A DNA stretch of 14,072 bases from a virus: positions 1 through 14,072 of the IMG/VR virus record IMGVR_UViG_3300043446_004346. One strand, 5' to 3'. A program made the position numbers and the translations under genes. This document shows, piece by piece, positions 1 through 12,877 of the stretch (its first letter is position 1; every line of letters starts with the position of its first letter). The notes under the pieces were generated by a model that made no database searches, had not been told where the DNA came from, and saw only the letters and a list, made by a program, of their open reading frames with translations.

Positions 1-127
1 GCGTCAGGTTCATATTTAATATAATAATAACCACCACCGTATCTATTAAACATTAAATAAATACCATCTGCCCTTTGTAGATACGAAAAAGGTCTGCCTA
101 CACTTGATCCTGACTGAAAAGTAAATA
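1..127. repeat. Terminal overlap, copy A (identical to 13946..14072); signature of a circular molecule
   Basis: Read directly: gcgtcaggttcatatttaat...ctgactgaaaagtaaata occurs at both ends with no mismatch. Offset 13945 nt. Confidence 0.95.
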
Positions 128-224
128 ATATTTTTCTAGGTTGTTCAGGTTTGTCAAATGCAGTCAATTGCTTTTTAGCAATCAAATTAACCTTAAGCAA
201 ATCACCAATGTTTATTTCAGGCAT
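1..224 (-). CDS. N-terminal part of a 132-aa ORF split by linearisation (MPEINIGDLLKVNLIAKKQLTAFDKPEQPRKILFTFQSGSSVGRPFSYLQRADGIYL...); continues at 13771..13945
   Basis: ATG at 224..222 lies 1 nt after the stop of the 226..921 ORF. The frame stays open to position 1 and joins the 13771..13998 track ORF once the 13945-nt offset is applied (399 nt in total). Confidence 0.7.
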   Translation of the reverse strand, partial: MPEINIGDLLKVNLIAKKQLTAFDKPEQPRKILFTFQSGSSVGRPFSYLQRADGIYLMFNRYGGGYYYIKYEPD

Positions 225-225
225 A

Positions 226-921
226 TTATTTCCTTAACATTTTAAGTAAGAAATTAAATTGCATTTTGTCATTTTCCGCCATTTCGCACAATAACAATAG
301 ATCATCCCCAAGTTGTTCATCACATTTTTTAAGTCTTTCAATTGCATTTGCAATTTTTTCATCATTGCTATCAGCTTCAACACCTGAAACGTGGGTAACT
401 TTTTGTTGTTGTTGCGGTGTAACTAAATTTGCTACTACATTCATAAGCATTTGTCTTACTGCAGGGTTACCCATTAAACCTGATAAAAGATTATTTTCGG
501 GTTCTTCTTCTTCCTCCTCATCTTCTTCCTCTAATTGCATTTGAAGTGCTGCAATTTGACTTTTAAGTGCAGTTATTTCATTTTGCATTTGTGGGTTATA
601 CATTCCAACTTGCTGCTGCATTAAACCATAATTTGATCTATTAAGTTGAAATGTGATTGTATTGTGTGCTTCTTTTTTCTTGCCTTTATCTCTTAATATG
701 ACAAGTAAATATGTGTTTGTGTTATCAGGGTTTGACATTACACTAGCCAGTGCGTCAGAAAGATGCTGCCTTCCTGTTATTTTATCATCACCATCATAAG
801 AAAACCTTCTGCAGGTTTCATCTATTTTATGTCCTGCATATACTGAATATGCAGCTTCATCATACTGATCATAATATGACAGTACACCTTCTGCGTCGTG
901 TAGTTCAGGTTTATAAGGCAT
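226..921 (-). CDS. Hypothetical acidic coiled-coil protein (231 aa), possible scaffolding or assembly factor
   Basis: Long ORF in the structural block. It has a heptad-like stretch NEITALKSQIAALQMQLEEEDEEEEEEPE, no TM segment and no enzyme motif I recognise. The function is a guess from position and composition. Confidence 0.7.
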   Translation of the reverse strand: MPYKPELHDAEGVLSYYDQYDEAAYSVYAGHKIDETCRRFSYDGDDKITGRQHLSDALASVMSNPDNTNTYLLVILRDKGKKKEAHNTITFQLNRSNYGLMQQQVGMYNPQMQNEITALKSQIAALQMQLEEEDEEEEEEPENNLLSGLMGNPAVRQMLMNVVANLVTPQQQQKVTHVSGVEADSNDEKIANAIERLKKCDEQLGDDLLLLCEMAENDKMQFNFLLKMLRK

Positions 922-938
922 ATATTATACATTTAAAA

Positions 939-956
939 GTGAAAGAAAAGTGATTA
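939..956 (-). promoter_or_regulatory. Conserved intergenic motif, copy 1 (plus-strand GTGAAAGAAAAGTGATTA; reads TAATCACTTTTCTTTCAC on the coding strand)
   Basis: 18-nt string identical to 3498..3515. It sits between the stop at 963 and the ATG at 921. Confidence 0.6.
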
Positions 957-962
957 ATCCTT

Positions 963-1388
963 TTAAGCATAATAAACACCAAAGCAAACACTATAGTTAC
1001 TTGCTGAAATACTACTGTATGCACTAGGTGTTAAAATGTATGACTTTGACCATACAATTTGCTGCCCTGCAAATGGAGTAATTGCAAATGCGTATGGATC
1101 AGCACTAGATGAATTTGAAGCAATTCTGTTAAGTTCTAGTACTGGTATTCGGTTTACACTTTCCTTGTCATTATAATAAAGTACCAAGTAAGTATTTTTC
1201 ATATTTGCTAGTGAAAGCAAAGGGTTACCACTTAAAATACTGTTTGTTAATACGTTGGGAGTATATGTAACTAGATTAAGCATTGATACAAAACGCAATT
1301 GCGGTTGATCTGCAAAATAAAATCTTGTACCTGTGCTGCTTTGTGGTACTATACACTCTATAAATTCATATTGATTAACCTTATTCAT
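963..1388 (-). CDS. Small beta-rich structural protein (141 aa); candidate single jelly-roll capsid or penton protein
   Basis: ORF directly downstream of the 222-aa capsid candidate. It has no TM and is rich in V/I/Y/T/N/S, with short alternating beta-like segments. The fold assignment is inference only. Confidence 0.65.
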   Translation of the reverse strand: MNKVNQYEFIECIVPQSSTGTRFYFADQPQLRFVSMLNLVTYTPNVLTNSILSGNPLLSLANMKNTYLVLYYNDKESVNRIPVLELNRIASNSSSADPYAFAITPFAGQQIVWSKSYILTPSAYSSISASNYSVCFGVYYA

Positions 1389-1460
1389 ATCGGTTTTTTA
1401 CAATTTTAAAAAATAGGGCTTCTATTTTTAACGTGCCATCGCCCATTGCAATACAATTTA

Positions 1461-2129
1461 TTAACGTACTGGAGTAACGTTTTGTGCCAAGATACCACGC
1501 ATAACCACAACAATTTTTGGTGCAGTTCCTGCCTGTAGTGTACCAATTGCTGCAGGAAGTTGAATAGTCAATTGATTATTCTTACTACCTACTAAAACAA
1601 TGTTTGGTTCTACTGGATAATATCCACTTTCAGTACCATCATTTTGATCAAGACCAGTGTTTGCAGTACCAGTGTAAATACCAGTTTGTGAAACACCTAT
1701 CCACAAATGACGATAAATATCCCATGAAGGCATGATCTGCCTGTTGTTTACAGTAAGTTGCAATTGACCATTGTAAAGGTTATACAATGCTGCAGATGCA
1801 CCAGCAGTACTGAAAACAGTTGCGTTTGGATATGTATAAAGTGGGAATGCAGTTGTAGTTGATGCTGCAGGTGCTGCAACAAAAATTCCAATTTGAGCAA
1901 CTACAAAAGCATCTTGCAAATTAAGCAAATTGTTTGTTACTGGTTGATAGTTATTTTGGTTGTCATTTACCAAAATGGGAATATGATATGAAGTTGTAGA
2001 AGTACTCATCAAAACTTCACTTCTAAGATAAGACTGGCTAAGAATAGCTTGATTAACGGAAAAACCTGCAGATTGTACAAGATTTTTTGCGTTATCAAAC
2101 ACTAACCTAGCATTCATTTGACTTGCCAT
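1461..2129 (-). CDS. Putative major capsid protein (222 aa, beta-rich, jelly-roll-like)
   Basis: It lies in the centre of the structural block and is flanked by the only sizeable intergenic spacers in that block. It has no TM and a beta-strand-rich composition (e.g. AFVVAQIGIFVAAP, LQLTVNNRQIMPSW, KIVVVMRGILAQN). No sequence family was recognised from memory. Confidence 0.6.
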   Translation of the reverse strand: MASQMNARLVFDNAKNLVQSAGFSVNQAILSQSYLRSEVLMSTSTTSYHIPILVNDNQNNYQPVTNNLLNLQDAFVVAQIGIFVAAPAASTTTAFPLYTYPNATVFSTAGASAALYNLYNGQLQLTVNNRQIMPSWDIYRHLWIGVSQTGIYTGTANTGLDQNDGTESGYYPVEPNIVLVGSKNNQLTIQLPAAIGTLQAGTAPKIVVVMRGILAQNVTPVR

Positions 2130-2164
2130 TTTCTTTTAGTTTATTTGTTTTAAAATTTTAAATA

Positions 2165-2587
2165 TTAATAATCTTCGTCCATTCCTGCCAAAACAGAAAG
2201 GTTATCAGGTTCATAACCTGCAACTACCGAAAGATCATCACCTGCCATAACTGAAACAGGAATTTCCATAGCTTGATCAATTGCACCTAGTACATTTGTT
2301 GCTTGTAGCAAACCAAGTCCACCTGCTGCAACCATTCCATCACCGATATTTTTACCAAATGATCCTTTAATGATGCTAGGGAAAAATGCACCAAGTGCAA
2401 TTACACCTGCTGACTTAATTTTTGCATCAAGATTTGGTAAAATCTTAGGTGAACTGGTGATCATTCTTGCTGCTGCTGCACCTACCACAAGTCCTGCTGC
2501 ATCCATCAAAAACGATTTTGAAATTTTTCCTACACTTCTTCTACGAGAACGGCGGTAAGATTTTGCCCTTTTTCTTCTTCTTGCCAT
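2165..2587 (-). CDS. Membrane protein with polyarginine N-terminus (MARRRKRAKSYRRSRRRS), Gly/Ala-rich TM core and acidic repeated C-terminus
   Basis: Hydrophobic segments GLVVGAAAARMI, AGVIALGAFFPSII and GMVAAGGLGLL. The C-terminal near-repeat is DDLSVVAG / DNLSVLAG. Confidence 0.7.
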   Translation of the reverse strand: MARRRKRAKSYRRSRRRSVGKISKSFLMDAAGLVVGAAAARMITSSPKILPNLDAKIKSAGVIALGAFFPSIIKGSFGKNIGDGMVAAGGLGLLQATNVLGAIDQAMEIPVSVMAGDDLSVVAGYEPDNLSVLAGMDEDY

Positions 2588-2631
2588 TTTTTTTAGTTTT
2601 TAATTGGTTTTGTGATAACTATATCAAGATT

Positions 2632-2886
2632 TTATTTATTATGAAATTTTCTCATAGCAGAAATGTTTTCTGCATAAAGTTTTAATTCCTTTTCAGATAC
2701 TTTTTTTAATTTAAAACTAGAATAACTTCCAATTATTCTAAATACTGCAGGTTTATAACTAACCTTAAAAGCATTAATACCTTCAATCAATGCTTCTTCA
2801 GTATCAGCAAAAAAATTCAGATCATCACGATATGGAAATTTAACTAAATATCCACCGTATTTTATGTTTACAACTATATTGTTCAT
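2632..2886 (-). CDS. Hypothetical protein (84 aa)
   Basis: ORF with a 4-nt overlap (2883..2886) with the upstream gene. No recognisable motif. Confidence 0.55.
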   Translation of the reverse strand: MNNIVVNIKYGGYLVKFPYRDDLNFFADTEEALIEGINAFKVSYKPAVFRIIGSYSSFKLKKVSEKELKLYAENISAMRKFHNK

Positions 2887-3206
2887 ACAAAAAATTTTAC
2901 TTTTCCTATTGATTTAAAACCACTTACTACTCTAATATTAACATTATGGCTTTTTGTGTCAGTGTGCATTTCACTTGATGACTTCTTTTTTCTAGCTTTT
3001 ACTTTTGTAGCTTTTACTGCACTTTTCTTTTTTACTTTACCAACACTAGCAACTTTCGATCCACTTCTTTTTTTGCTATATGATATTGCCCATGCTTGTT
3101 TTACTGCCTGTGCTTGTGTTAGCTTAGGGTTTTTCTTCCTTAATTTTTTGGCTTCCGCAACTACTGCTTTGAATTTTGCCCTAGCTGCTCGTTGTTTTGC
3201 AGTCAT
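2883..3206 (-). CDS. Lys-rich histone H1-like basic protein (107 aa), probable DNA-binding or condensing protein
   Basis: AKQRAARAKFKAVVAEAKKLRKKNPK...KVKKKSAVKATKVKARKKK. Very high K/A/R content and no TM. Confidence 0.7.
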   Translation of the reverse strand: MTAKQRAARAKFKAVVAEAKKLRKKNPKLTQAQAVKQAWAISYSKKRSGSKVASVGKVKKKSAVKATKVKARKKKSSSEMHTDTKSHNVNIRVVSGFKSIGKVKFFV

Positions 3207-3209
3207 TTT

Positions 3210-3491
3210 TTATTTTTTTAAAGTTTTTTTACACCAGTGTAACATTTCCTTTCCTCCCCACAATTGATAAGAAATATAACCACATTTAGACTGATCACCT
3301 ACATAAACTTTTGCTCTTTCTAAATATGAATATATTTTATTAACCATTTTTTCATTCAATCCTTTTTTGTTGATCAACATTCTAGCGGTTTTTACACCAG
3401 TACTGTTTTTACAACTTCCCTTTTCCATGTTTAATATAAGTCCTTCAATTGCGTTTTTTGTTGCCTTTACTGGGTAATTATAATACAACAT
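3210..3491 (-). CDS. Small conserved phage-type protein (93 aa) with an ...ARMLINKKGL...YLERA...YQLWGG...W signature
   Basis: ORF preceded by motif copy 2. From memory, the signature resembles a module seen at the N-terminus of head-maturation proteins of tailed phages. Not verified. Confidence 0.6.
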   Translation of the reverse strand: MLYYNYPVKATKNAIEGLILNMEKGSCKNSTGVKTARMLINKKGLNEKMVNKIYSYLERAKVYVGDQSKCGYISYQLWGGKEMLHWCKKTLKK

Positions 3492-3497
3492 ATAAAG

Positions 3498-3515
3498 GTG
3501 AAAGAAAAGTGATTA
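3498..3515 (-). promoter_or_regulatory. Conserved intergenic motif, copy 2 (GTGAAAGAAAAGTGATTA on plus)
   Basis: Identical to 939..956. It overlaps the stop codon of the 378-aa gene and ends 6 nt before the ATG at 3491. Confidence 0.6.
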
Positions 3516-4649
3516 TTTTTTTGCTATTAAATAAAGTGCAACTGCACCACCAACAATAAAAGGCAAATAGTTTTTCTTACCTTCTGCCTGATTAAATATT
3601 TTATCTACTTCACTTTGTTGCACCTGTTGTAATTTTTCCCCGCTTTCCAATTTTTTTTCAACTACATTTTTAACTTGTTTTGCAAGTACTCTTTTCCCAA
3701 CTTCCCCTACTTCCTTTACATCAATTCCAATTTTTCCTAGAAATTCTGCAACTTTTATAAGTATTGGTGCTGCAGTAACTGTAGCTGCTGCAGGTGCTGC
3801 TGCAACAACACCGATCTGTCCTTCGCTAGGAAATTCAATGTCATCACCAAGCAATCTCTTTTTTGCTGCACCTTGATTAACTTTTCTAAGAAGTTCATTT
3901 GCATCACCTCCTAAATTGTTCCACCAATCCACAGTAGCACTTGCCTTTGTGTCAAAAGCATTTTTTAACTTCGTTGCTAATCCCATAAAATTTAGTCCAA
4001 CTAGCAAAAGAAATGATCCCCTTGCAGGTGCTAAACTTATTCTTAATACTGTTTTTTTAACTGGTTTTGGTGCTGCAGCTTGTTTTGCTGCACCTATACC
4101 TGATACTTGATATAAAGGCATATTTGGCTTTTTATCTATTTTATGAAAATACGTTTTTCGTTCATTAAATCTGCTAAGTACTGGATCAACAAAATATTCA
4201 TTTCCGTTACGATCTTTTATTACTACAAAAACATGATGCGGAATTTCATCTAATAATTTATAACTAGCAAAACGAAAATTTAGATCATTATTGATCAATC
4301 CTTTTCTTTTTAAGCTATCCAGTACACCCATTGAAAACAAAGCATATCCTTTGCAATCAAATCCATCACTAGCAAGTGCAAGTAATGCACTAGGTGACAT
4401 GATCCGTTGCGACTGATCACTCTCTATTTTGTAACGGACATTTTGTTTAAGAAATTTGAAAACTTTCTTTGCAGTTTGAATGCCATCACCTGCGTAAAAA
4501 TCTTGACTAATTTTATCATATTCATTTTTATACTGGTTATGTGCTTTCAGCATTGCAGTCATAATATCAGGGACTTGTTGATCACGCACCAACAATTTAC
4601 GTTGTTTTTCAAATGGAGTAAGTCTGCCTAATAATGCAATGCGATCCAT
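3513..4649 (-). CDS. Papain-fold (transglutaminase-like) cysteine peptidase domain fused to C-terminal membrane anchors (378 aa)
   Basis: Cys-His-Asp pattern: GFDC99KGYALF, about 40 aa, then HH139VFVVIKDRNGNEYFVD155P, which matches the transglutaminase-core layout. TM-like segments LRISLAPARGSFLLLVGLNFMGL and NYLPFIVGGAVALYLIA. The ATG shares 1 nt with the upstream stop (TAATG). Confidence 0.75.
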   Translation of the reverse strand: MDRIALLGRLTPFEKQRKLLVRDQQVPDIMTAMLKAHNQYKNEYDKISQDFYAGDGIQTAKKVFKFLKQNVRYKIESDQSQRIMSPSALLALASDGFDCKGYALFSMGVLDSLKRKGLINNDLNFRFASYKLLDEIPHHVFVVIKDRNGNEYFVDPVLSRFNERKTYFHKIDKKPNMPLYQVSGIGAAKQAAAPKPVKKTVLRISLAPARGSFLLLVGLNFMGLATKLKNAFDTKASATVDWWNNLGGDANELLRKVNQGAAKKRLLGDDIEFPSEGQIGVVAAAPAAATVTAAPILIKVAEFLGKIGIDVKEVGEVGKRVLAKQVKNVVEKKLESGEKLQQVQQSEVDKIFNQAEGKKNYLPFIVGGAVALYLIAKK

Positions 4650-5083
4650 TAAAAAAGTTTTGATGAATATTCAAACGGAATTATCAAACCATCAATGTTT
4701 GTAGTTCCTTTAATCGTATATTTTGCACCTTTTGCAAATGCACCTTTTTCGGTTATTAATGACAATAAACCGATATTAGGTTTTGCAAATACACTCAAAT
4801 CGCTTTCACTTTTTGGTCGAATAGTTTGCACACCAAAACTTGCAAAATCAGCAACATATTTTCCGTTCACAAAAACTTCACCACTTATTGCGTTTATAGT
4901 TCCAGTAGTGTTTGTAGGGTTGATTACTTTGAAAATAATTTCTATTCGCTTTGAAATTCCACTTCCTGTTATGCGAATATTTTTAAAGGATAATTTTGTT
5001 TTGTCACCTAACTGCTTTTTACCATATAACCAGTATATGATGTAACCTGCAAACAGGTAAAAAAGCAAATTTTTGTTTTTCAA
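4649..5083 (-). CDS. N-terminally anchored LEA_2 / WHy-like beta-sandwich protein (144 aa), TTG start
   Basis: TM LLFYLFAGYIIYWLY followed by IEIIFKVINPTNTTGTINAISGEVFVNGKYVADF...YTIKGTTNIDGLIIPFEY, the typical LEA_2 pattern. The ORF has no ATG codon at all. The start codon at 5083..5081 is TTG. Confidence 0.65.
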   Translation of the reverse strand: MKNKNLLFYLFAGYIIYWLYGKKQLGDKTKLSFKNIRITGSGISKRIEIIFKVINPTNTTGTINAISGEVFVNGKYVADFASFGVQTIRPKSESDLSVFAKPNIGLLSLITEKGAFAKGAKYTIKGTTNIDGLIIPFEYSSKLF

Positions 5084-5100
5084 AATTTCTAACTTTTAAC

Positions 5101-5108
5101 CAAAACTA
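5101..5108 (-). promoter_or_regulatory. Candidate Bacteroidota -7 promoter box (TAGTTTTG = TAnnTTTG) for the late structural unit
   Basis: Exact match to the TAnnTTTG consensus, ending 17 nt upstream of the TTG start (5083). The nearest upstream TTTG is only 12 nt away, so the -33 element is poor. Confidence 0.35.
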
Positions 5109-5114
5109 TTGAAT

Positions 5115-5260
5115 ATTTTTCAAAAAAAAAAATATTAGGTCGGAAAAGTTGAAAAGAAGGTCAGTATCTAGGTTCACTTTCCCCTGTAGGGGGAAAGTGA
5201 CCTGCTGCCATCTTTCCAAGTGTTTTTTGACCTTACCAAAACTGACCTGACCTGTCCTTG
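5115..5260. promoter_or_regulatory. Origin-like or regulatory hub: A11 tract, GGTCR/TGACC iterons and a GC-topped hairpin
   Basis: A11 tract at 5122..5132. GGTCG at 5138 and GGTCA at 5159. TGACC at 5198, 5228, 5243 and 5248 (tgacctgacctg). Hairpin at 5171..5202. Confidence 0.5.
5171..5202. repeat. Inverted repeat or hairpin: TCACTTTCCCC (5174..5184), loop TGTAG, GGGGAAAGTGA (5190..5200); extends to GG/CC with one bulged T
   Basis: Perfect 11-bp stem read directly. Its arms contain the half-motif CACTTTC, which is related to the conserved intergenic motif. Confidence 0.8.
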
Positions 5261-5270
5261 TTTCATCTAA

Positions 5271-5290
5271 ATCACTTTTCTTTCACCTTT
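5271..5290 (+). promoter_or_regulatory. Conserved intergenic motif, copy 4, inverted orientation (ATCACTTTTCTTTCACCTTT on the plus strand)
   Basis: The 20-nt string equals the reverse complement of 3496..3515. It is the only copy that reads TCACTTTTCTTTCAC on the plus strand. Confidence 0.6.
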
Positions 5291-5291
5291 G

Positions 5292-5319
5292 ATAATAAAA
5301 AAAGGGCAAAATTGCCCTT
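5292..5319 (-). terminator. Intrinsic terminator of the early unit
   Basis: Stem AAGGGCA (5302..5308) / TGCCCTT (5313..5319). On the minus strand it is followed by TTTTTTTATT. It lies 29 nt downstream of the stop at 5348. Confidence 0.65.
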
Positions 5320-5347
5320 CTCTTGTTTTCCAGTGTTGATGCTAATA

Positions 5348-5539
5348 TCAAAAATCGTTTCTAAGGTACCTGCGGTGCGAAAATTTGCTGCTTTTTGCAA
5401 AATATAGGTTCATGTACCATGCACCCTCTTTTTCGGCAAATTTGGCAAAATTTTCAAGGTGTGAAATATTGCGGTATTTTCTAGGTCTTTTTTCCTTGTT
5501 AGGTTCAAAAAAGACAATTGCATTATAAATTTGTTTCAT
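5348..5539 (-). CDS. Hypothetical basic protein (63 aa)
   Basis: ORF bracketed by motif copy 3 upstream and a terminator downstream. No recognisable domain. Confidence 0.55.
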   Translation of the reverse strand: MKQIYNAIVFFEPNKEKRPRKYRNISHLENFAKFAEKEGAWYMNLYFAKSSKFSHRRYLRNDF

Positions 5540-5563
5540 TTTTAAATTTTTTCTAATTTTGAA

Positions 5564-5580
5564 TTGAAAGAAAAGTGGTT
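5564..5580 (-). promoter_or_regulatory. Conserved intergenic motif, copy 3 (degenerate: TTGAAAGAAAAGTGGTT on plus)
   Basis: The core TGAAAGAAAAGTG is shared with copies 1 and 2. It lies 25 nt upstream of the ATG at 5539. Confidence 0.45.
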
Positions 5581-5607
5581 TTTCGTTTTCGGAAGATCAT
5601 TTGTCGG

Positions 5608-5639
5608 TAGGCACTGGAAACAGTGCCTATTTTTGTTTG
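5608..5639 (+). terminator. Hairpin with plus-strand terminator geometry (TAGGCACTG-GAAA-CAGTGCCTA + TTTTTGTTTG), overlapping the ATPase stop codon
   Basis: 9-bp stem at 5608..5616 / 5621..5629 with a GAAA loop. The T-run follows only on the plus strand. On the minus strand it follows the TAG stop directly but lacks a U-tract. Confidence 0.4.
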
Positions 5640-6583
5640 TAAAGTTCACCGACTTTTATAATGTCTGACTTCTCAATCCACTCTTTTATAATCTTTTTTG
5701 CAGTTGTTGTGCTTTTACCTGTAAATTCTGCTAAATCATTTACAATATCATTATACTTTCTAGGTTCTACCAGTATGCGACTGATCAGCGACTTTTTTTC
5801 CATTCCGTAAATTAATCCTGTAGATTTTTTTTCAGTATGAATTTGTTGCCATTCATTGCCCTGATATTGTATGCTTATTGGATCGAAATCGTCAGTGCTT
5901 CTCAAAAATGTAGGATGTAGATCTATTGTTTTTTGCTCTTTATTTTTTTCAATCCTAAGTACTGCATTTGCTTTGCGGTCTAAATATGATCCTATATGTC
6001 CAATACTATTTTGATCTTTTTTACCCAAATGCAAAACGCAAATGATTAAAAGATCATGCACCTTAGTAATTTTTTTTAACCACTGAATAAGATAGAATGA
6101 CTGTTCAACACTGTTGAAATCACTGATTAAATCAAGTATTCCATCAATGACCAGTATTGAACAGTCCTTATTATCAGAAAGATAAATTTCAGTCATCTGC
6201 ATTATATCTGCAGGTTTATCCTCCCTAAATAAAAAACTGTCAAAATTGTGCGGAAAATGATCATACAACATTTGTTTCCTTGTACGATCTAAGTTTTTAT
6301 AGTAATCGTAATCACTACTTTCCGTATCAATATAGCACAGTCTTTTTCTATCTTTTGGAAAATTTAATTTCATTCCGAAAATATCCCATGTAGTGTAGGC
6401 AGTTGCAATGGCACCAGTTACAAATAATGTTTTACCTTGTTTTGGTAATCCACTAAAAACAACAATGCTTTGTGAAACACCTATTGTTTTACCATTGATA
6501 GTAAAAAGAATATTTTCATCTTTCGGTTGATAATCTTGCTTAAATTTTCTTTGTGATAGTTTCTCTTTAAGATCATTTGTCAT
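5627..6583 (-). CDS. RecA-fold RepA/DnaB-like (AAA_25-type) replication ATPase or helicase with C-terminal winged-helix domain (318 aa)
   Basis: Walker A GLPKQGKT and Walker B SILVIDGILD. LIICVLHLGKKD...GHIGS...ANAVLRIEK resembles the RepA-like sensor region. The C-terminus LAEFTGKSTTTAKKIIKEWIEKSDII is HTH-like. Confidence 0.8.
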   Translation of the reverse strand: MTNDLKEKLSQRKFKQDYQPKDENILFTINGKTIGVSQSIVVFSGLPKQGKTLFVTGAIATAYTTWDIFGMKLNFPKDRKRLCYIDTESSDYDYYKNLDRTRKQMLYDHFPHNFDSFLFREDKPADIMQMTEIYLSDNKDCSILVIDGILDLISDFNSVEQSFYLIQWLKKITKVHDLLIICVLHLGKKDQNSIGHIGSYLDRKANAVLRIEKNKEQKTIDLHPTFLRSTDDFDPISIQYQGNEWQQIHTEKKSTGLIYGMEKKSLISRILVEPRKYNDIVNDLAEFTGKSTTTAKKIIKEWIEKSDIIKVGELYKQK

Positions 6584-6586
6584 TGG

Positions 6587-6826
6587 TTACTTTTCTAAGA
6601 AACTGCAAAATTCCTCTGCTATTTGGAATGCCGCTTGAATAGCGAATTTACGATCTTCAACACTATCAACAATGTTATCATCACTGATTATCATTGCTTT
6701 TAGTATTTCCAGTGCCGCTACTTCCTGTTTTGTCATCCCTGCTAGAATGATCATTTGGTTGCTGAACTTGTCCATAAATTGCACTGGTTGTGCAGGTAAA
6801 TCCTTGTTTGTTTGTTGGCTTTGCAT
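6587..6826 (-). CDS. Hypothetical protein (79 aa; the true start may be an internal Met)
   Basis: ORF ending 3 nt before the ATPase ATG. An in-frame stop lies immediately upstream of its first ATG. It overlaps the zinc-ribbon ORF by 146 nt. Confidence 0.55.
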   Translation of the reverse strand: MQSQQTNKDLPAQPVQFMDKFSNQMIILAGMTKQEVAALEILKAMIISDDNIVDSVEDRKFAIQAAFQIAEEFCSFLEK

Positions 6827-6953
6827 CTTTTATTTTGTTTATGATTAAGCAATAAGGGCAAACAGTTGATCCATGTTTGCCCATGTGGTAAGTAACAGTA
6901 AAATACTTGTTACACTGGCAGCATCTCATTTGATCCATTTTTCTTTGCTGCAA
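6681..6953 (-). CDS. Zinc-ribbon protein (CxxC...CxxC: CCQCNKYF...VCPYC); the C-terminal half is low-complexity and overlaps the next gene
   Basis: The four-Cys ribbon lies in the first ~36 aa. The rest (KPTNKQGFTCTTS...TGSSGTGNTKSNDNQ) lies out of frame over 6681..6826. Confidence 0.5.
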   Translation of the reverse strand: MQQRKMDQMRCCQCNKYFTVTYHMGKHGSTVCPYCLIINKIKDAKPTNKQGFTCTTSAIYGQVQQPNDHSSRDDKTGSSGTGNTKSNDNQ

Positions 6954-7137
6954 CTAAATCCTCGTATTTGCAAAAATCATCCATTGCAAATTTGATAGAA
7001 TATTTGTGTAAGAAATACACTTTAAATAATCCATCATGCGGAATTTCTTTTTGGCTTAAAATGATGAAGGGATGTCCATTTGAAGTTTTTAGTGCTTCGC
7101 ACCAGTACTGCTTACCATTGTGTGAATACTTGTTCAT
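6910..7137 (-). CDS. Hypothetical protein (75 aa)
   Basis: ORF with a 4-nt overlap with the upstream gene (7134..7137). No recognisable motif. Confidence 0.55.
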   Translation of the reverse strand: MNKYSHNGKQYWCEALKTSNGHPFIILSQKEIPHDGLFKVYFLHKYSIKFAMDDFCKYEDLVAAKKNGSNEMLPV

Positions 7138-7415
7138 GCTAGGTTTGTTTTAAGTGATTGAATATTTAAATGTAGTTGATCTATTGTGTCCGCAAAAAGA
7201 CATTTTAATTCATTTTCCAGTACAAATGGCAAATCTGATTGATAAATAGTATAATGTTTACCGTCTGCAAAAAAATGTATTTGTATGTTATTAAACTGTT
7301 TTGCTTTGAGCAAATTTTGAAATTTTACAATCTTTTCTTCCTGAAATTGTATTTCATCAAACAATTCCTTTAAATCATTAAACATTGTGTATAAGTTTTT
7401 GCATTTGTAATTCAA
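7134..7415 (-). CDS. Hypothetical protein (93 aa as tracked; more likely 83 aa starting at 7385)
   Basis: Met11 at 7385 gives an ATGTTTAA-type 8-nt overlap with the upstream stop (7378..7380), which is more typical than a 38-nt overlap. Confidence 0.55.
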   Translation of the reverse strand: MNYKCKNLYTMFNDLKELFDEIQFQEEKIVKFQNLLKAKQFNNIQIHFFADGKHYTIYQSDLPFVLENELKCLFADTIDQLHLNIQSLKTNLA

Positions 7416-7581
7416 AATACCTACCGAATTGGAATGATATGTGCATTAAATGATGTTCATTTTCATAATACAGGATAAATTTAGTGTTATCCCCTACAAT
7501 TGTATCATGTCTGATATTGTAGTTTTTCAAAAATTGTTCCCATAACCTGTCTAGGTCATAAGCAATAACGATACTAGCCAT
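7378..7581 (-). CDS. Hypothetical protein (67 aa)
   Basis: ORF that starts 2 nt after the stop of the 39-aa micro-ORF. Confidence 0.55.
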   Translation of the reverse strand: MASIVIAYDLDRLWEQFLKNYNIRHDTIVGDNTKFILYYENEHHLMHISFQFGRYFELQMQKLIHNV

Positions 7582-7583
7582 AA

Positions 7584-7703
7584 TTAAAGTTTTTTTCTAA
7601 ATAATGAAATAATTTCTAGTGTTATCAGTGCCACTAGGTATAAAGGAATGCAGATTAGGATAAAATAAATTACTGATAATATCCAAGCTAATAACCTGAT
7701 CAT
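7584..7703 (-). CDS. Hydrophobic micro-protein, 39 aa (MIRLLAWILSVIYFILICIPLYLVALITLEIISLFRKKL), not in the ORF track
   Basis: Hand-translated. The TAATG junction couples it to the preceding 25-aa ORF. One long TM-like stretch and a basic C-terminus. Confidence 0.45.
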   Translation of the reverse strand: MIRLLAWILSVIYFILICIPLYLVALITLEIISLFRKKL

Positions 7704-7780
7704 TACATAAAATTATCTGCAAAACATATTGCTAAGGATAGCAAAAATAAGATCAGGACTTGTTTTTGTGTCTTTGTCAT
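7703..7780 (-). CDS. Hydrophobic micro-protein, 25 aa (MTKTQKQVLILFLLSLAICFADNFM), not in the ORF track
   Basis: Hand-translated. It is the first ATG after the candidate early promoter, and its stop overlaps the next ATG by 1 nt. Confidence 0.35.
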   Translation of the reverse strand: MTKTQKQVLILFLLSLAICFADNFM

Positions 7781-7816
7781 GTGGTTTTTGTTTTAGTTAA
7801 AAATCATTTGTCATGT

Positions 7817-7846
7817 CAATATTAAGATATTTTCCACATTTCCAAA
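7817..7846 (-). promoter_or_regulatory. Candidate Bacteroidota-type promoter of the early unit (TTTG, 18 nt, TAATATTG)
   Basis: On the minus strand: TTTG (7846..7843), an 18-nt spacer, then TAATATTG (7824..7817), one mismatch to TAnnTTTG. It lies just downstream of the late terminator. Confidence 0.4.
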
Positions 7847-7849
7847 AAA

Positions 7850-7882
7850 AAATATAAAAAAAGGGATCGTTGAAACGATCCC
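7850..7882 (-). terminator. Intrinsic terminator of the late structural and lysis unit
   Basis: Stem GGGATCGT (7863..7870) / ACGATCCC (7875..7882) with loop TGAA. On the minus strand it is followed by TTTTTTTATATTTTTTTTT. It lies 26 nt after the lysozyme stop. Confidence 0.75.
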
Positions 7883-7908
7883 CGCCCTATTCTCTCTGAA
7901 AATCAAAC

Positions 7909-8412
7909 CTATTTGAGAAATAATTCCTTTTCTAGCTGCCTTCTTTTAGTCAGTCCTGCACTTATTTTGCCGTTTATCTTATTCCACCTTAAAAACTGAT
8001 CAGCAACCTCTGATTTTGGCTTATTTTGGTTTAATAACCTAAGTAGTGTACTGCTTTGAAATGCACCTAATCCAATGTTATAAGCTAAACTGGTTAGTGC
8101 AGCTAATTGGTTAGCATTTATAGGTACTTTAATTAACTTACCTAGTGCGTATTGTCTTTTCTCAATATCCGTTTTTAGCCATCTTTCTGCAGTCGGTTTA
8201 TCAATTGTATCACCTTCTTTTATTGGTTTATTGGTGTCAGGGTTTATTGTAGTACCATAACCAATTGTCCAAATACCTGCGGTGTCAGGGTATGCCTTTA
8301 ATCTTTCGCCTTCAAAAACTTTTATAATATCAAATGCTTTCACCTTCTTTGCAGATAAGAGTAAAAAAATAACAATTGCAGCTATTATAATCCATTTCTT
8401 ATTGGACATCAC
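7909..8412 (-). CDS. GH24 (T4-type) lysozyme with N-terminal signal anchor (167 aa)
   Basis: FE34GERLKAYPD43TAGIWT49IGYG aligns residue for residue with the T4 lysozyme E11/D20/T26 motif. The N-terminus WIIIAAIVIFLLLSA is hydrophobic. Confidence 0.9.
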   Translation of the reverse strand: MMSNKKWIIIAAIVIFLLLSAKKVKAFDIIKVFEGERLKAYPDTAGIWTIGYGTTINPDTNKPIKEGDTIDKPTAERWLKTDIEKRQYALGKLIKVPINANQLAALTSLAYNIGLGAFQSSTLLRLLNQNKPKSEVADQFLRWNKINGKISAGLTKRRQLEKELFLK

Positions 8413-8560
8413 TGTCTTTTGCTAGTAATCCTGTAATAAGTATCCCAATACCTGAAACTACCTTTACCCAATCTTTTTGTGCAACACCATCACCAATTAG
8501 GGGTAATCCTGCAACTGATCCGAAAAAGCTAGTTTTAATGTTTTTTAGTATTCTTTTCAT
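8399..8560 (-). CDS. Holin-like small membrane protein, 53 aa (MKRILKNIKTSFFGSVAGLPLIGDGVAQKDWVKVVSGIGILITGLLAKDSDVQ), not in the ORF track
   Basis: Hand-translated. It overlaps the lysozyme start by 14 nt. The pattern KxxKT(S/T)xxG...G..LAKD resembles small proteins I recall next to endolysins in Bacteroidota phages. Not verified. Confidence 0.55.
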   Translation of the reverse strand: MKRILKNIKTSFFGSVAGLPLIGDGVAQKDWVKVVSGIGILITGLLAKDSDVQ

Positions 8561-8780
8561 CTTTTAATTTTTTATATTTTAAATAATTCAATGAAATAGT
8601 AACAATACAACTAACTGTAGATGCACTGGCAAATATGATCTTTGTCAGCTCGTCAATTTCTTGTAATCCAATTGCGGACAATAAAACGGTGCAGATTGTT
8701 GATACTACTGCAGGATCAGTTTGTTGCGTCATTGCTAGTTTCATCTTTTTGAAATTTTGCTGCAATAATGTTATAAGCAT
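8535..8780 (-). CDS. Two-TM class II holin-like protein (81 aa as tracked; probably 65-69 aa from Met at 8732 or 8744)
   Basis: TM1 AVVSTICTVLLSAIGL, TM2 IIFASASTVSCIVTISLNYL, basic tail KYKKLKDEKNTKKH. The upstream 54-aa ORF ends at 8716, which favours an internal start. Confidence 0.6.
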   Translation of the reverse strand: MLITLLQQNFKKMKLAMTQQTDPAVVSTICTVLLSAIGLQEIDELTKIIFASASTVSCIVTISLNYLKYKKLKDEKNTKKH

Positions 8781-8880
8781 TTATAACAGTTGCAGATTGA
8801 TCTAAAGTTGCAAAAACACCTTTACTTGTTGATAAGTCTAGTGCTGCTTTTAAAACTTCTAATGCTTGTTTTTCGTTCAT
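8716..8880 (-). CDS. Helical small protein, 54 aa (MNEKQALEVLKAALDLSTSKGVFATLDQSATVINAYNIIAAKFQKDETSNDATN), not in the ORF track
   Basis: Hand-translated. It fills an otherwise empty 111-nt gap and starts 11 nt after the stop at 8892. Confidence 0.5.
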   Translation of the reverse strand: MNEKQALEVLKAALDLSTSKGVFATLDQSATVINAYNIIAAKFQKDETSNDATN

Positions 8881-8891
8881 TTGTTCTTGTT

Positions 8892-9161
8892 TTATTGGTT
8901 AATAATTGTTAATCCTAAAGTAGTTGCAATATAATTATATGCGTAATCATTTGTTGTATAGTTATTATATTCAGGTTCACCCATTGTTACAGTACCAGTA
9001 GCTAGACTTTCACCCAATTGCCCTTGATTATCTGCACAAAGATTGTAACTAAATGATGCAAAACTTTCAAAGTTATCATAGTTTCCGTAACATGATAGCC
9101 ATACTGCTTCTGTTACTACACCATTATTCCAAATTTGTACTGGTTCAATTTGCTTTGCCAT
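8892..9161 (-). CDS. Hypothetical protein (89 aa) downstream of the spike gene
   Basis: ORF that overlaps the spike 3' end by 17 nt. It is Y/N-rich with no TM. It may be a spike accessory protein, judged by position only. Confidence 0.55.
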   Translation of the reverse strand: MAKQIEPVQIWNNGVVTEAVWLSCYGNYDNFESFASFSYNLCADNQGQLGESLATGTVTMGEPEYNNYTTNDYAYNYIATTLGLTIINQ

Positions 9162-12100
9162 ATAATTGTTTTAATTCTTCTATTTGTGCTTGTTGTTCTT
9201 GAATGGCTTTTATCAGCATTGGCACAAATACTGAATATTTTACTGATTTAGTAGTTGTTTCTAATTGATTTCCTTTTTTATCTATGTCAAAAGTTTCTTC
9301 AATCATTGAAGGAAATATTTCTTCTAATTCCTGCGCAATAACACCTATTTGTTTTATTTCACTACCAATTAAATTATAATTTCTAATTTTTACTTTCAAT
9401 AATTTATCAAGTTTAGGTGTTGCATCAATTATATTCTCTTTTAATTTTATATCAGATAAAGAACCATAACTATTATTTGCATTTTGGATATTACCATTAC
9501 CTATAATTTTGATATTAGTTGTACTACCAATATCACTATAACCAATAAAATGATTCCATCCAGTACCTGAAGCTGTATAAGACAAACTTGTTATTACACT
9601 TCCAGTAAAACTTGCAGTTGATTTTTCAGCATAATAAATAGATTCAGTAGTAGATGCGCCTTTGCTATATACTAATGCAGTTGGCGAACCACTCCCTATT
9701 CCGACATTGCCGCCCGAAGATATTCGGATGCGTTCGGTATCTGCAGTTGCAAATATTAATGGATAACTTCCGATTACATCTATTACTCCATATTCTCCAG
9801 CTGAATAAGAAGGACCTGTGTATCCTATAAGCATTTGTCTTGCTGCACTGTTCTTGAAATATAAAAGAGAAGTTGCAGTACTTACTGTATTTTCAATAGT
9901 TAATGTAGCATTTGCACCTGTCACACTTGAACTGAAGCTAGTTGAACCAGAATTATTTATTTGTAATAATGCTGCGTTATATGCCTGATTAACTATTCTT
10001 AATGGAGTTCCTGCCCCCAATTGAATATCGTTTACTGAACCTGCATAATTTAAATTAATAGCTAAAGGATAATTAGTAACAATTGTTGCATTCGACGTAA
10101 TATTTGAACTAAAAGTAGATGCTCCAGTTGCATCAATTAATAACCTCCTACCAAATGTACCACCTGACTTTGTATATAATTCAAAACCTCCTGATGTATT
10201 AAGATTAAATCCAAATGCCTTATCACCTGCAAAGTTTGCAAATTGTGCCTGTAATCCACTTCCGTAAGTATCTGACAAAGTATTTGATACCATGTAAGAA
10301 ACTGCTCTTTGTCCTGCACCTGTTGCATCAATCTTAAATGATCTACCTGCAATTAAACTTTCACCTGTTGCACCTTCTGAAGGGTTATTTGCTAGTACAC
10401 TTGCGTTGAATGATGCCTGACCATTGTTTTCCAATGTCATTGAAAGTGTAGCTGATCCACCTGCGGAAGTGTAAAATTTTAATCTTCCGTTTCCACTGTT
10501 AGCACCATCTAAGGTTGCAGCTATATAAGGGTTAGCATTTCCTAAACCAAAATTGATTGTTGTAATTGCTGCACCTGTTGAATAGTAATTATTTGTTAAT
10601 TGTAATGCAGTAAAAGACGCTGCATTACCTGTAAATATTGCATTGAGTCCATTCAATACACCAGTTAAAGTTGCTGCACCAACTACATCAAGTGCAACAC
10701 TAGGTGTTTTACCAATTCCCACATTTCCATAAAATCTTGCAGTTTTATCGTTTCTAGTCCAAAAAATGTCTGCACCGTTTGTATCTGCAACATTAAAGGC
10801 ATAATCACTAGCACCAGTTGAACTACCTTTTACATATAATGTTACGTTTGTAACTGGAGTATTATCCCCAAATACTGCCGATCCATTCTTTGCAATGCTA
10901 AATCTATCCACCCAAGATTGTGATACTGCAGATGCTGAACTTTGAAATCTTGCTAAATACAATGTAGTATCTGCGTCAGTTGATCTGACAAGTAAACCTT
11001 GTGAACTATCTTCTATATTTGTAACTGATAAGGCATAACCTGCCAAAGTTCCGCTAAATGCTGCAGTTGTACCATTTAATGCACCAGTTAATGTACCACC
11101 TGTTAAAGGCAAATATCCACTTAATGCACTGCCATAATTAGGTATATTTAATGTATTTCCTACAAATGTTGCAGCACCACTGCTACCAGTTGTTGTGAGT
11201 GATATTGTTGCCTGTTTGCTATTTAATTGTGTTTGTATAGCACTTGTAACACCTTTTACATAACTTATTTCAGTTAATGAAGGGTAAGTAGCGGTAGTTA
11301 GTGATCCTATTGTTGATCCAGTTGCGGTAAAATATGCTAATTCATTTATAGTACCTGTACCAGTTACAGGGTTAGTTAATGCTCCCTGATATTGCGGTAT
11401 ATTTAATGTATTTCCTACAAATGTTGCAGCACCACTCGTACCAGTTGTTGTAAGTGATATTGCATTTTGTTTGCTATTAAATGTACTCCAATCACTTGAT
11501 GAAAGTTTACCTGTATTTGTTGCAGATGCTACAGGTAAGTTAAATGTATGTGTACCACTGGAAGTTGAAATATTAAAATTAGTACCTGATGTACCAGTAA
11601 CTAAAAATTGTACTTGTTCAGTTGCACTATTTATTGCAGTAATTCCAGTACTAAATGTAGTTGCAATTTGTGCTAATCTTGTTGATTGGGTATAAAATGT
11701 TATTGTTCTACCATCATGTGTTACATAAAACCTTATTGCTAATCTATCAGTAAGTGTTAATACAGTTGCAGGTACTGCAATTGATGTATAATAAAGATCA
11801 ATAGAAGTACCACCAGTAATTACTTCGGGGTTTGATGAACTACTGGCAATTAATGAAAATGTAGTTCCATCGTATTTGTATAATTCAACATAAAAACTAG
11901 GGTTACCACCTGTTGAATTACTACTAAAATATGCTTGTATATTCCAGTTACCTGCAGGTATATTTAAAAGTGCAGGATCACCTGCATTTGTAATAAATTG
12001 TGCTATATATCCGTTAGCACTTATTGTAAAGTTTGCTGCAGTTCCAGTATTTGCAGTTTTACTCATTTGATAATAAGTATTTCCGCCAAAACTTCCCTGA

Positions 12101-12468
12101 CTTGTACCACCGTTCAAATAATAATTAACAGATGATCCACCTCCTGTATTTGGAAAATCTGCTAAAGTACCATCACCCCTAATATATTGTGAAACTGTAC
12201 CTGCACCAGTAACATTTAATGATCCACTACCTGTTATTGGTGAATTTGCTACATTAAATGCACTAGGCATTGATAAACCTACGGAAGTAACTGTACCTAC
12301 ATTACCTATTAAATCCCATGTTGAACCAGTATCCCTGTACCAAAGTTTTGTGTCAGTTGATACAAATAACCTGCCTGTTATACCTGCTGCAGGTCTATTT
12401 GCAAATACATCCGAATAAAACATCGGTGTACCAAACTGGTTCAATACTGAATAATCAACAACAATCAT
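9145..12468 (-). CDS. Receptor-binding spike or fibre (1107 aa) with C-terminal S74 intramolecular-chaperone autoproteolytic domain
   Basis: The C-terminus LS|SDIKLKENI...IGVIAQELEEIFPSMI...VKYSVFVPMLIKAIQEQQAQIEEL matches the Peptidase_S74 pattern (9148..9456). The body is long and G/S/T/N-rich and beta-helix-like. An 85-aa internal repeat carries SLTTTGxSGAATFVGNTLNIPxY. Confidence 0.85.
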   Translation of the reverse strand: MIVVDYSVLNQFGTPMFYSDVFANRPAAGITGRLFVSTDTKLWYRDTGSTWDLIGNVGTVTSVGLSMPSAFNVANSPITGSGSLNVTGAGTVSQYIRGDGTLADFPNTGGGSSVNYYLNGGTSQGSFGGNTYYQMSKTANTGTAANFTISANGYIAQFITNAGDPALLNIPAGNWNIQAYFSSNSTGGNPSFYVELYKYDGTTFSLIASSSSNPEVITGGTSIDLYYTSIAVPATVLTLTDRLAIRFYVTHDGRTITFYTQSTRLAQIATTFSTGITAINSATEQVQFLVTGTSGTNFNISTSSGTHTFNLPVASATNTGKLSSSDWSTFNSKQNAISLTTTGTSGAATFVGNTLNIPQYQGALTNPVTGTGTINELAYFTATGSTIGSLTTATYPSLTEISYVKGVTSAIQTQLNSKQATISLTTTGSSGAATFVGNTLNIPNYGSALSGYLPLTGGTLTGALNGTTAAFSGTLAGYALSVTNIEDSSQGLLVRSTDADTTLYLARFQSSASAVSQSWVDRFSIAKNGSAVFGDNTPVTNVTLYVKGSSTGASDYAFNVADTNGADIFWTRNDKTARFYGNVGIGKTPSVALDVVGAATLTGVLNGLNAIFTGNAASFTALQLTNNYYSTGAAITTINFGLGNANPYIAATLDGANSGNGRLKFYTSAGGSATLSMTLENNGQASFNASVLANNPSEGATGESLIAGRSFKIDATGAGQRAVSYMVSNTLSDTYGSGLQAQFANFAGDKAFGFNLNTSGGFELYTKSGGTFGRRLLIDATGASTFSSNITSNATIVTNYPLAINLNYAGSVNDIQLGAGTPLRIVNQAYNAALLQINNSGSTSFSSSVTGANATLTIENTVSTATSLLYFKNSAARQMLIGYTGPSYSAGEYGVIDVIGSYPLIFATADTERIRISSGGNVGIGSGSPTALVYSKGASTTESIYYAEKSTASFTGSVITSLSYTASGTGWNHFIGYSDIGSTTNIKIIGNGNIQNANNSYGSLSDIKLKENIIDATPKLDKLLKVKIRNYNLIGSEIKQIGVIAQELEEIFPSMIEETFDIDKKGNQLETTTKSVKYSVFVPMLIKAIQEQQAQIEELKQLYGKAN
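11141..11462. repeat. Two 67-nt near-identical direct repeats (11141..11207 and 11396..11462), period 255 nt, inside the spike gene
   Basis: ggtatatttaatgtatttcctacaaatgttgcagcaccact(g/c)(c/g)taccagttgttgt(g/a)agtgatattg, read directly. It encodes the duplicated 85-aa module. Confidence 0.85.
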
Positions 12469-12866: not shown

Positions 12867-12877
12867 AGTATTTTATT

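Follow-up and report, generated by a model that had tools for sequence, protein, structure and literature searches.

Promoters of the T7, T3, SP6, and K11 type are repeats of approximately 20–23 bp, in which a variable upstream specificity region is combined with a conserved initiation region, and T7-like promoters are also used at the replication origin. In other systems, such as the MotA-box middle promoters of T4 and the Ogr/Delta late promoters of P2/P4, a phage upstream element that occurs in multiple copies before genes replaces that of the host, and the MotA promoters of T4 are also part of the origins ori(uvsY) and ori(34). In a third type of system, represented by lambda oop/cII, P22 sar/ant, and the convergent promoters of 186, a promoter downstream of a small gene aims back at this gene, has its own terminator, and adjoins a replication or regulatory region. 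Here, we analyzed a repeated element, designated M1, in the IMG/VR virus record IMGVR_UViG_3300043446_004346, of which positions 1 to 14,072 are referred to as the window. All plausible genes of the window are located on the minus strand, which is called the sense strand throughout. As judged by sequence comparison, M1 is real and non-random and constitutes a cis-regulatory element that is conserved within a group of uncultured phages. The best explanation, to which we attach about even confidence, is that M1 could be a phage-class promoter in which a block for specificity is joined to a core for initiation and of which one copy would drive an antisense RNA.

M1 resembles T7-type promoters in being a directional repeat of approximately 20 bp that is located in short intergenic spacers, shows a block/core layout, and has an origin-side copy. 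The geometry is also alike, whereby CAC is followed by four nucleotides and a purine (CACTATA-G in T7 and CACCTTT-A/G in M1). Unlike in T7, however, no single-subunit RNA polymerase was found in the 13.9-kb genome or would fit into it, and the only large open reading frame (ORF) encodes a tail-fibre-like protein of 1107 amino acids (aa). Moreover, one M1 copy is antisense, and the start site of M1 is a predicted one. With the MotA and Ogr/Delta types M1 shares the multiple copies before genes and the phage upstream element that would take the place of the host one, but M1 has no host-type downstream box (TAnnTTTG) next to it, and its origin-side copy (copy D) points away from the origin iterons and meets a terminator at once. 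Copy D is located downstream of a small gene, aims back at it, is provided with a terminator, and adjoins a replication region, as is the case for oop, sar, and 186. In contrast to these systems, the predicted antisense RNA, which is known here from sequence alone, spans a whole gene together with its leader and would start at a promoter of the same class as those of the structural genes. The housekeeping promoter of Bacteroidota (TTTG at -33 and TAnnTTTG at -7) has its boxes at the two large intergenic regions of the phage and is distinct from M1. No TAnnTTTG is present beside any M1 copy, the sole intergenic exact box being that at 5101–5108, and M1 is G-free, so that M1 was rejected as a Bacteroidota sigma-A promoter. 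The new details are the M1 sequence, its two-part co-variation, and a conserved antisense terminator, whereas repeat promoters or operators with an antisense unit are already known.

Written in gene-strand orientation, M1 reads TCACTTTTCTTTCAC, with three exact occurrences and one degenerate copy in the window. The initial annotation of the window had located GTGAAAGAAAAGTGATTA at 939–956 and 3498–3515, the degenerate copy TTGAAAGAAAAGTGGTT at 5564–5580, and, inverted relative to the genes, a reverse copy ATCACTTTTCTTTCACCTTT on the plus strand at 5271–5290, and these sequences and coordinates were found to be right. In its full extent of approximately 22–28 bp, M1 comprises an A-rich stretch, then TCACTTTYCYTTCAC, and then CTTTA(A); the motif is pyrimidine-rich. 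Copy A (TAATCACTTTTCTTTCACTTTT, 935–956, minus strand) is a full copy that begins a few nucleotides (nt) past the stop of a 141-aa gene, and 17 nt separate the end of its 15-nt motif from the downstream ATG of a 231-aa gene (226–921). Copy B (TAATCACTTTTCTTTCACCTTT, 3494–3515, minus strand), also full, overlaps the TAA stop of a 378-aa gene and is found 6 nt upstream of the ATG of a 93-aa gene (3210–3491). Copy C (CCACTTTTCTTTCAA, 5564–5578, minus strand) is truncated, as the block is present and the ACCTTTA core is absent, and is located 24 nt before the ATG of a conserved 63-aa gene (5348–5539, minus strand), within its leader. For this copy a distance of 25 nt had been annotated, and the annotated distances of 6 and 17 nt for the other two minus-strand starts hold. 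Copy D (AATCACTTTTCTTTCACCTTTG, 5270–5291, plus strand) is full and inverted, lies between a bidirectional terminator (T1) and the iterons of an origin-like region, points toward the 63-aa gene, and has no downstream ORF. Positions 3494–3514 and 5270–5290 match in 21 of 21 nt, and 935–955 and 5270–5290 in 20 of 21. A small gene-strand ORF after the inverted copy was rejected because its ATG is not conserved, and so was a fifth, inverted M1 copy near the helicase start, which lies within coding sequence for ...KGEKESSIII*. That such a repeat is not expected by chance, as had been estimated before, was confirmed with 200 dinucleotide shuffles, none of which reached the four matches of the core CACTTTYYYTTCA in the window (0.03 +/- 0.16 expected). 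A looser test, in which a 15-mer with three mismatches was allowed, is much weaker (five matches vs. 1.17 expected).

For a comparison with close relatives, 80 viral contigs with a helicase of 58–72% identity and further contigs obtained via the 141-aa protein were considered, and the close-relative set comprised 119 non-redundant loci. M1 copies occur at the same four syntenic sites in approximately 120 relatives: copy C follows the helicase gene in the leader of the 63-aa gene, copy D lies inverted approximately 290 nt further on and past the terminator, copy B overlaps the stop of the 378-aa gene, and copy A precedes the 231-aa gene. Anchored on the 63-aa gene, copy D was detected in 80 of 81 and copy C in 79 of 86 cases, and a strict pattern recovered copy A in 63 of 71 and copy B in 77 of 83. 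The misses of the strict pattern are mostly variants that are 1 nt shorter or T-rich; copy B is truly absent in L078 and L274. A full sense copy either comes immediately after a stop codon or overlaps it and is 5–25 nt away from the downstream ATG, a placement that suits a promoter better than a ribosome site. The information content is near maximum across CACTTT-YYY-TTCAC-CTTTA (CACTTT..TTCACCTTTA) and low in the flanks, and an A-rich stretch precedes every M1 copy. The initial annotation had stated that absence from relatives or a shifting position would speak against a regulatory element; M1 turned out to be conserved in both sequence and position. Furthermore, the motif CACTTTYYYTTCACCTTTA was scanned for in 185,579 species reference genomes, which gave 84 isolated hits with a maximum of one per genome. 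Nearly all of them are situated on the opposite strand within long ORFs, and only one locus is phage-related, for which reasons M1 was rejected as a host-genome motif. The earlier suggestion of a phage-specific regulatory element is supported by these data, as M1 is kept in place in the relatives and does not constitute a motif of the genomes scanned.

Within the close family, the spacer between the two CAC units is either CAC-N7-CAC or CAC-N8-CAC, and the respective form is common to all copies in L067, L233, L265, and L068, whereas L263, L264, and L231 have mixed spacer lengths within one genome. Strict concerted evolution of the spacer length is thus only partly true and was rejected, and the mixed spacers render the evidence for co-evolution weak inside this family. 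Convincing co-variation comes from more distant families. In two contigs (L283 and L284), in which the identity of the 141-aa protein is only 33%, a homologous 63-aa gene is present, and behind it come a terminator, TTACACCTTTAA in inverted orientation, iterons that differ in sequence, and a hairpin whose loop reads CTACAA. Sense copies precede the capsid-like gene and the homologue of the 133-aa gene in these contigs. A metagenome scan with an alignment of the 63-aa protein yielded at least eight further sequence families, in which the layout is kept, the sequence is different, and copy D is present, too. The 5' block of 12–14 nt is family-specific (ACCTGTAT, CACTTGCAT, CATCTGCT, CAATTGCT, ACCTGTGT, or ATTTTTT) and, within one genome, the sense copies carry the same block as copies C and D. 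Across families, a constant 3' core is found, [CG]ACCT[TA][TC] plus a purine. Copy C always ends just before the core, and the same truncation is found in at least eight other sequence families. It is this pattern of a block that varies between families and co-varies among copies that makes M1 a two-part element across the at least eight further families. In L332, L362, and L290, a full sense copy is positioned right after a stop codon, 45–50 nt upstream of the capsid-like gene (MASxVGTRLAFEKAK, homologue of 1461–2129), and in L294 and L283 a sense copy is found 22–26 nt upstream of this gene without a GC-rich hairpin. Such a hairpin, GCCCTGGGCGAACGAACAGGGC followed by AAAAACAAAATG, is conserved in the leaders of L332 (approximately 5390–5430), L362 (approximately 5915–5955), and L290 (approximately 6280–6320) and may act as a stabiliser of the 5' end of a late mRNA.

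An alignment of the region around copies C and D from 54 relatives revealed a fixed order in the sense direction. The helicase stop in an A-run is followed by a hairpin (H1), TTGACAAATGATC (motif M2), copy C, the 63-aa gene, terminator T1 with runs on both sides, the inverted copy D, three GGTCAG iterons, a hairpin, three inverted iterons, an AT-rich stretch, a -7 box, and a 144-aa gene. T1 (5295–5330) is a bidirectional intrinsic terminator that consists of an A-run, a stem at 5302–5319 (AAGGGCAAAATTGCCCTT), and a T-run. It is predicted to end the transcript of the 63-aa gene and is located 12–16 nt downstream of copy D in the orientation of the latter; its folding energy is equal on both strands, and the runs on both sides are conserved. 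H1 (5606–5641, plus strand) is an antisense-only intrinsic terminator, GGTAGGCACTGGAAACAGTGCCTATT then TTTGTTTGTA, which abuts the helicase stop approximately 330 nt downstream of copy D in the direction of D. It is the best terminator-like site of the whole window and is antisense to every gene. A U-tract is present only on the antisense strand, whereas on the gene strand an A-run precedes the hairpin and no U-tract follows it. Among 65 unique relatives, 64 have an H1 that folds more stably as antisense than as sense RNA (mean -16.8 vs. -11.6 kcal/mol), and 125 G:U pairs were counted in the antisense folds and 18 in the sense folds. Where one strand has a G:U pair, A and C are mismatched on the opposite strand. 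A number of these pairs result from the stem entering the U-tract, but the internal ones are clear, e.g., GGGGTGGG with CCATCCCT. T1 and the origin hairpin do not show a strand asymmetry of this kind. Moreover, distant families have the same design of an A-run, a hairpin, and GACAAA(T/C)GA in front of their 63-aa gene. Taken together, the antisense-only U-tract, the fold stability, and the recurrence in distant families imply that a terminator has been kept by selection for a transcript that crosses the 63-aa gene in antisense. No conserved element other than copy D is oriented so as to feed H1 and T1.

The initial annotation had left open whether the repeat is a promoter or activator site, an RNA processing or translation-control site, or a binding site shared with the origin, and the first of these options is the best supported one. 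As a phage-class promoter, M1 would be a directional two-part element that is used by the host RNA polymerase, since the genome encodes no polymerase of its own, together with a putative and probably phage-encoded specificity factor, for which the family-specific blocks argue. The 5' block of 12–14 bp (TCACTTTTCTTTCA in this genome, with the A-rich stretch before it) would be the recognition site of the factor, and the DNA would melt and transcription initiate at the 3' core (ACCTTT plus purine), with the start at or just after the conserved purine. Copies A and B would add transcription of two structural-gene blocks inside a long operon that is read from the presumed host-type promoter near 5101–5108, and the leaders thus made would be very short. 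Copy C, a block without a core, would serve as an operator within the 63-aa leader. Copy D would start an antisense transcript, part of which would stop at T1 to give an RNA of approximately 30–40 nt, and the rest of which would cross the 63-aa gene, copy C, and M2 in antisense and stop at H1 as an RNA of approximately 345 nt. By the same switch, the late genes could be turned up and the 63-aa gene turned down, or the origin could be activated or primed. What we infer here comprises initiation at M1, the position of the start site, the existence of the factor, and the role of the antisense RNA. The promoter reading would explain the directionality, the positions of the copies, the co-variation of the block, the truncation of copy C, and the antisense-only terminator at once.

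Several observations weigh against the promoter reading. The ATG after copy B comes only 6–8 nt after the core CACC, so that a start at B would lead to an almost leaderless mRNA. For a promoter, it would be odd to have a good terminator within 12–16 nt downstream, as copy D does. The CAC-CAC spacing is either 7 or 8 nt, and some genomes contain both forms. Searches with Pfam, PHROGs, and NCBIfam did not recognise an RNA polymerase, a sigma-like protein, or a DNA-binding protein among the ORFs of the genome. Finally, one would expect the copies to co-vary just as much if M1 were a pure operator or acted by RNA pairing.

The operator alternative, which we regard as rather unlikely, proposes that a phage DNA-binding protein reads two tandem TCAC(C)TTT units that are 10–11 bp apart. 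The reader would be the 63-aa protein or a family-specific early protein, which would repress or block transcription and join the origin complex, whereas M1 itself would not be a promoter. Through its flanking copies C and D, the 63-aa gene would be autoregulated, possibly with the formation of a loop. The units do form a direct repeat, which is a perfect tandem in L068 (TCACCTTTTT TCACCTTTAT), the block co-varies among the copies, and C is situated in the leader of the 63-aa gene and D beside the origin. The 63-aa gene is always found between C and D, and the order of the 63-aa gene, terminator, and D is kept in deep relatives. The 63-aa protein is the only small non-structural protein shared with the L283/L284 family, with 52% identity compared to 40% for the helicase. 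However, the protein is conserved although the block differs strongly between families, which makes it unlikely that it reads the block of M1; it may read the core or may simply be a regulated target. The AlphaFold2 model of the 63-aa protein has a predicted local distance difference test score (pLDDT) of 78 and is good for residues 5–47, with a beta-beta-alpha-beta core and pLDDT values of 84–93 for residues 1–40. Foldseek searches of PDB and BFVD and HMMER searches of PDB and NCBIfam gave no significant match to the protein, so that a DNA-binding fold was not detected and the protein was rejected as a recognisable DNA binder. The best non-significant matches, all with E > 0.01, were phi29 p56, the small RNA-binding ribosomal proteins eL38 (E 0.17) and LX (found with Foldseek), and uncharacterised proteins of microviruses in BFVD (E 0.04, TM 0.6), and an RNA-binding role of the 63-aa protein may be considered. 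A pure operator would also leave unexplained both the conserved antisense-only terminator downstream of D and the location of full copies just upstream of the most expressed structural genes, which the promoter reading takes into account.

In the P1 c4 and P4 CI systems, one inverted copy is combined with several direct copies, and the same pattern is present here. It could also be that M1 acts at the level of RNA, whereby an anti-M1 RNA pairs with M1 in the leaders of the genes after A, B, and C and controls their translation or stability. The source of this RNA would be a gene-strand read-through of copy D or the 3' part of the antisense RNA, in which anti-C is situated approximately 30 nt ahead of H1. 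The complementarity is extensive (D/B 21 of 21 nt and D/A 20 of 21), the targets adjoin start codons, the block changes in parallel in C, D, and the sense copies from family to family, and copy C has a C where A and B have a T, so that anti-C could match both via G:U wobble. On the gene strand, however, copy D follows a strong terminator and no promoter of a small RNA was found. The differences between D and A give C-A mismatches in many genomes and a 1-nt bulge in L263, L264, and L231, and in several families the sense copy is 45–50 nt away from the ATG with a hairpin in between. In addition, no Rfam family matched. We thus consider pairing as in P1 c4 and P4 CI to be quite improbable.

The positions of the sense copies just upstream of start codons could also point to an element of mRNA translation or processing, i.e., a pyrimidine-rich, G-free site of ribosome standby, an S1-type enhancer, or an RNase site, in a host that does not depend on Shine-Dalgarno pairing. 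The G-free sequence of M1 and the presence of a Shine-Dalgarno-like sequence in only 2 of 23 genes would be in line with this. A role of this kind is very unlikely, though, because the inverted copy, which has no downstream ORF, is equally conserved (80 of 81), the sense copies are anywhere between 5 and approximately 50 nt away from the ATG, a family-specific block of 12–14 nt would be unexpected for a signal to the host ribosome, and the motif is absent from host genomes. By the same variable distance the annotation had argued against a simple ribosome-binding site, and this argument is strengthened by the inverted copy; a Shine-Dalgarno sequence, which would be purine-rich and 5–10 nt from the start, was rejected for the pyrimidine-rich M1. 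Hardly credible is a polar fork barrier of the Ter/Tus type, in which C and D would form a convergent trap by the origin with A and B as back-up, replication would be effectively unidirectional and co-oriented with transcription, and the 63-aa protein would be the barrier that autoregulates via C as Tus does via TerB, since, despite a non-palindromic M1 that occurs in both orientations, copies C and D that face each other across the 63-aa gene beside the origin, and genes that are all co-oriented with a rightward fork, copy C has no conserved core, the sense copies shift junctions between lineages with a preference for the site upstream of the capsid-like gene, the searches with the 63-aa protein showed no similarity to Tus or RTP, and the antisense-only terminator would not be explained. 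Further checks concerned other signals and data types: a tRNA scan revealed nothing relevant, a sigma-70 scan gave promoter-like hits at shuffle level (60 vs. 64), and short contigs from the European Nucleotide Archive that had been considered as transcript assemblies were rejected as ordinary metagenome contigs.

Copy D directly adjoins a region at 5130–5262 that looks like a replication origin and consists of iterons, a central hairpin (5171–5202), inverted iterons, and an AT-rich stretch. The GGTCA(G) iterons of the gene strand correspond to TGACC on the plus strand at 5228–5232, 5243–5247, and 5248–5252, and the inverted iterons are located, on the plus strand, at 5137–5141 and 5157–5164. 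The stem of the hairpin varies by compensatory substitutions among the relatives, the loop is CTAYAG, and the order and the iterons are conserved. As had been annotated, CACTTTC is part of both arms of the hairpin in this genome. The proposed link between M1 and the origin via this half-motif did not hold up, because the stem is not conserved; the arms of relatives read, e.g., CACAGGTCAACCC or CACTTGCCCCCC, and CACTTTC arms being specific to this genome, the resemblance is coincidental. M1 was likewise rejected as an origin iteron, as the iterons read GGTCA(G/A) and the M1 units TCAC(C)TTT.

Between H1 and copy C lies the conserved motif M2 (5596–5606, minus strand), which reads CGACAAATGAT here and TTGACAAATGAT in relatives. 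M2, as (T)TGACAAATGAT, also occurs on the minus strand at 6572–6582 and 7803–7813 and is conserved at all three sites in relatives. At 6572–6582 it forms the helicase start (ATGACAAATGATCT = MTND), at 7803–7813 it follows a -7-like box after 4 nt in the intergenic region 7723–7908, and in distant families it is found as GACAAACGA upstream of the 63-aa gene. M2 could be an early transcript start, an operator, or a translational operator. In L003, L016, L244, L247, and others, extra genes are inserted between the helicase stop and the module of H1, M2, and C, one of which is a cytosine-methyltransferase-like ORF (THGSLFSGIGGFDLAAEWMGW). The junction of helicase and H1 thus appears to be a hotspot for cargo genes.

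The window ends in a direct terminal repeat of 127 nt, in which 1–127 and 13946–14072 are exactly identical, and it is thus a complete circular genome of 13,945 bp. Recognisable genes encode a lysozyme (7909–8412), the tail-fibre-like protein, and a DnaB/RepA-like helicase (5627–6583). There were zero nucleotide matches to the window among GenBank phages, and a search for cultured relatives with the capsid-like protein gave no match. The helicase shows distant similarity to primase-helicases of Flavobacterium and Olleya phages and to human-gut contigs. Three of the latter were fetched and dropped as relatives, since they have genes on both strands, a GC content of 44–52%, and no comparable repeat. 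The exact Bacteroidota -7 box at 5101–5108 (TAGTTTTG = TAnnTTTG, minus strand) is located upstream of the 144-aa gene and is presumed to be the host-type promoter of the structural operon. A second -7-type box, TAATATTG, matches in 7 of 8 positions, has a TTTG 18 nt upstream, and lies in the intergenic region 7723–7908. Furthermore, a fragment related to the phage was binned with a metagenome-assembled genome (MAG) of Bacteroidetes. From the kinship of the helicase, the few Shine-Dalgarno-like sequences, the -7 boxes, and the MAG-binned fragment, it is likely that the host of this uncultured phage belongs to the Bacteroidota.

Apart from M1, some further features of the genome were noted. On the minus strand, a small zinc-ribbon-like ORF at approximately 6830–6938, with its ATG at 6938 (MDQMRCCQCNKYFTVTYHMGKHGSTVCPYC...), overlaps the end of a 75-aa ORF and enters a 79-aa gene out of frame; its product is possibly a small regulator or a primase-type zinc finger. 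A 298-aa protein (12878–13774, minus strand) is made of tandem repeats of 21 nt (7 aa), and its gene contains a 121-nt block twice (13084–13204 and 13213–13333, 95% identical). It may be an extended, repeat-rich virion protein or a membrane-anchored protein. The 72-nt spacer at 1389–1460 (minus strand), which follows the capsid-like 222-aa gene, contains a hairpin, AAAAATAG-AAGCC-CTATTTTT, and then TAAAATTG, which matches the -7 box in 7 of 8 positions. This spacer may combine an attenuator and an internal promoter after the capsid gene.

If the promoter reading were false, M1 would still be a well-defined marker of the phage group. In its most far-reaching form, which we consider distinctly doubtful, the finding would mean that an undescribed clade of small circular phages (12–14 kb, genes on one strand, probably infecting Bacteroidota) redirects host transcription via a minimal factor that reads a family-specific block plus a universal ACCTTTA-purine core. 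An origin-side promoter in every lineage would then make an antisense or primer RNA across the 63-aa gene and couple the late switch to origin control, by a promoter-origin logic resembling that of T4 or T7 but without a phage polymerase. Promoter recognition in Bacteroidota is already unusual, and the family-specific blocks point to a putative phage factor that would retarget the RNA polymerase of these hosts; short orthogonal promoter/factor pairs could serve as genetic parts for Bacteroidota. If the promoter reading is true, M1 would represent a class of promoters whose parts for specificity and for initiation are separable, an antisense unit with exact RNA 5' and 3' ends would be predicted over the most conserved small gene of the group, and this would provide the first regulatory map of an abundant uncultured group of small freshwater phages.

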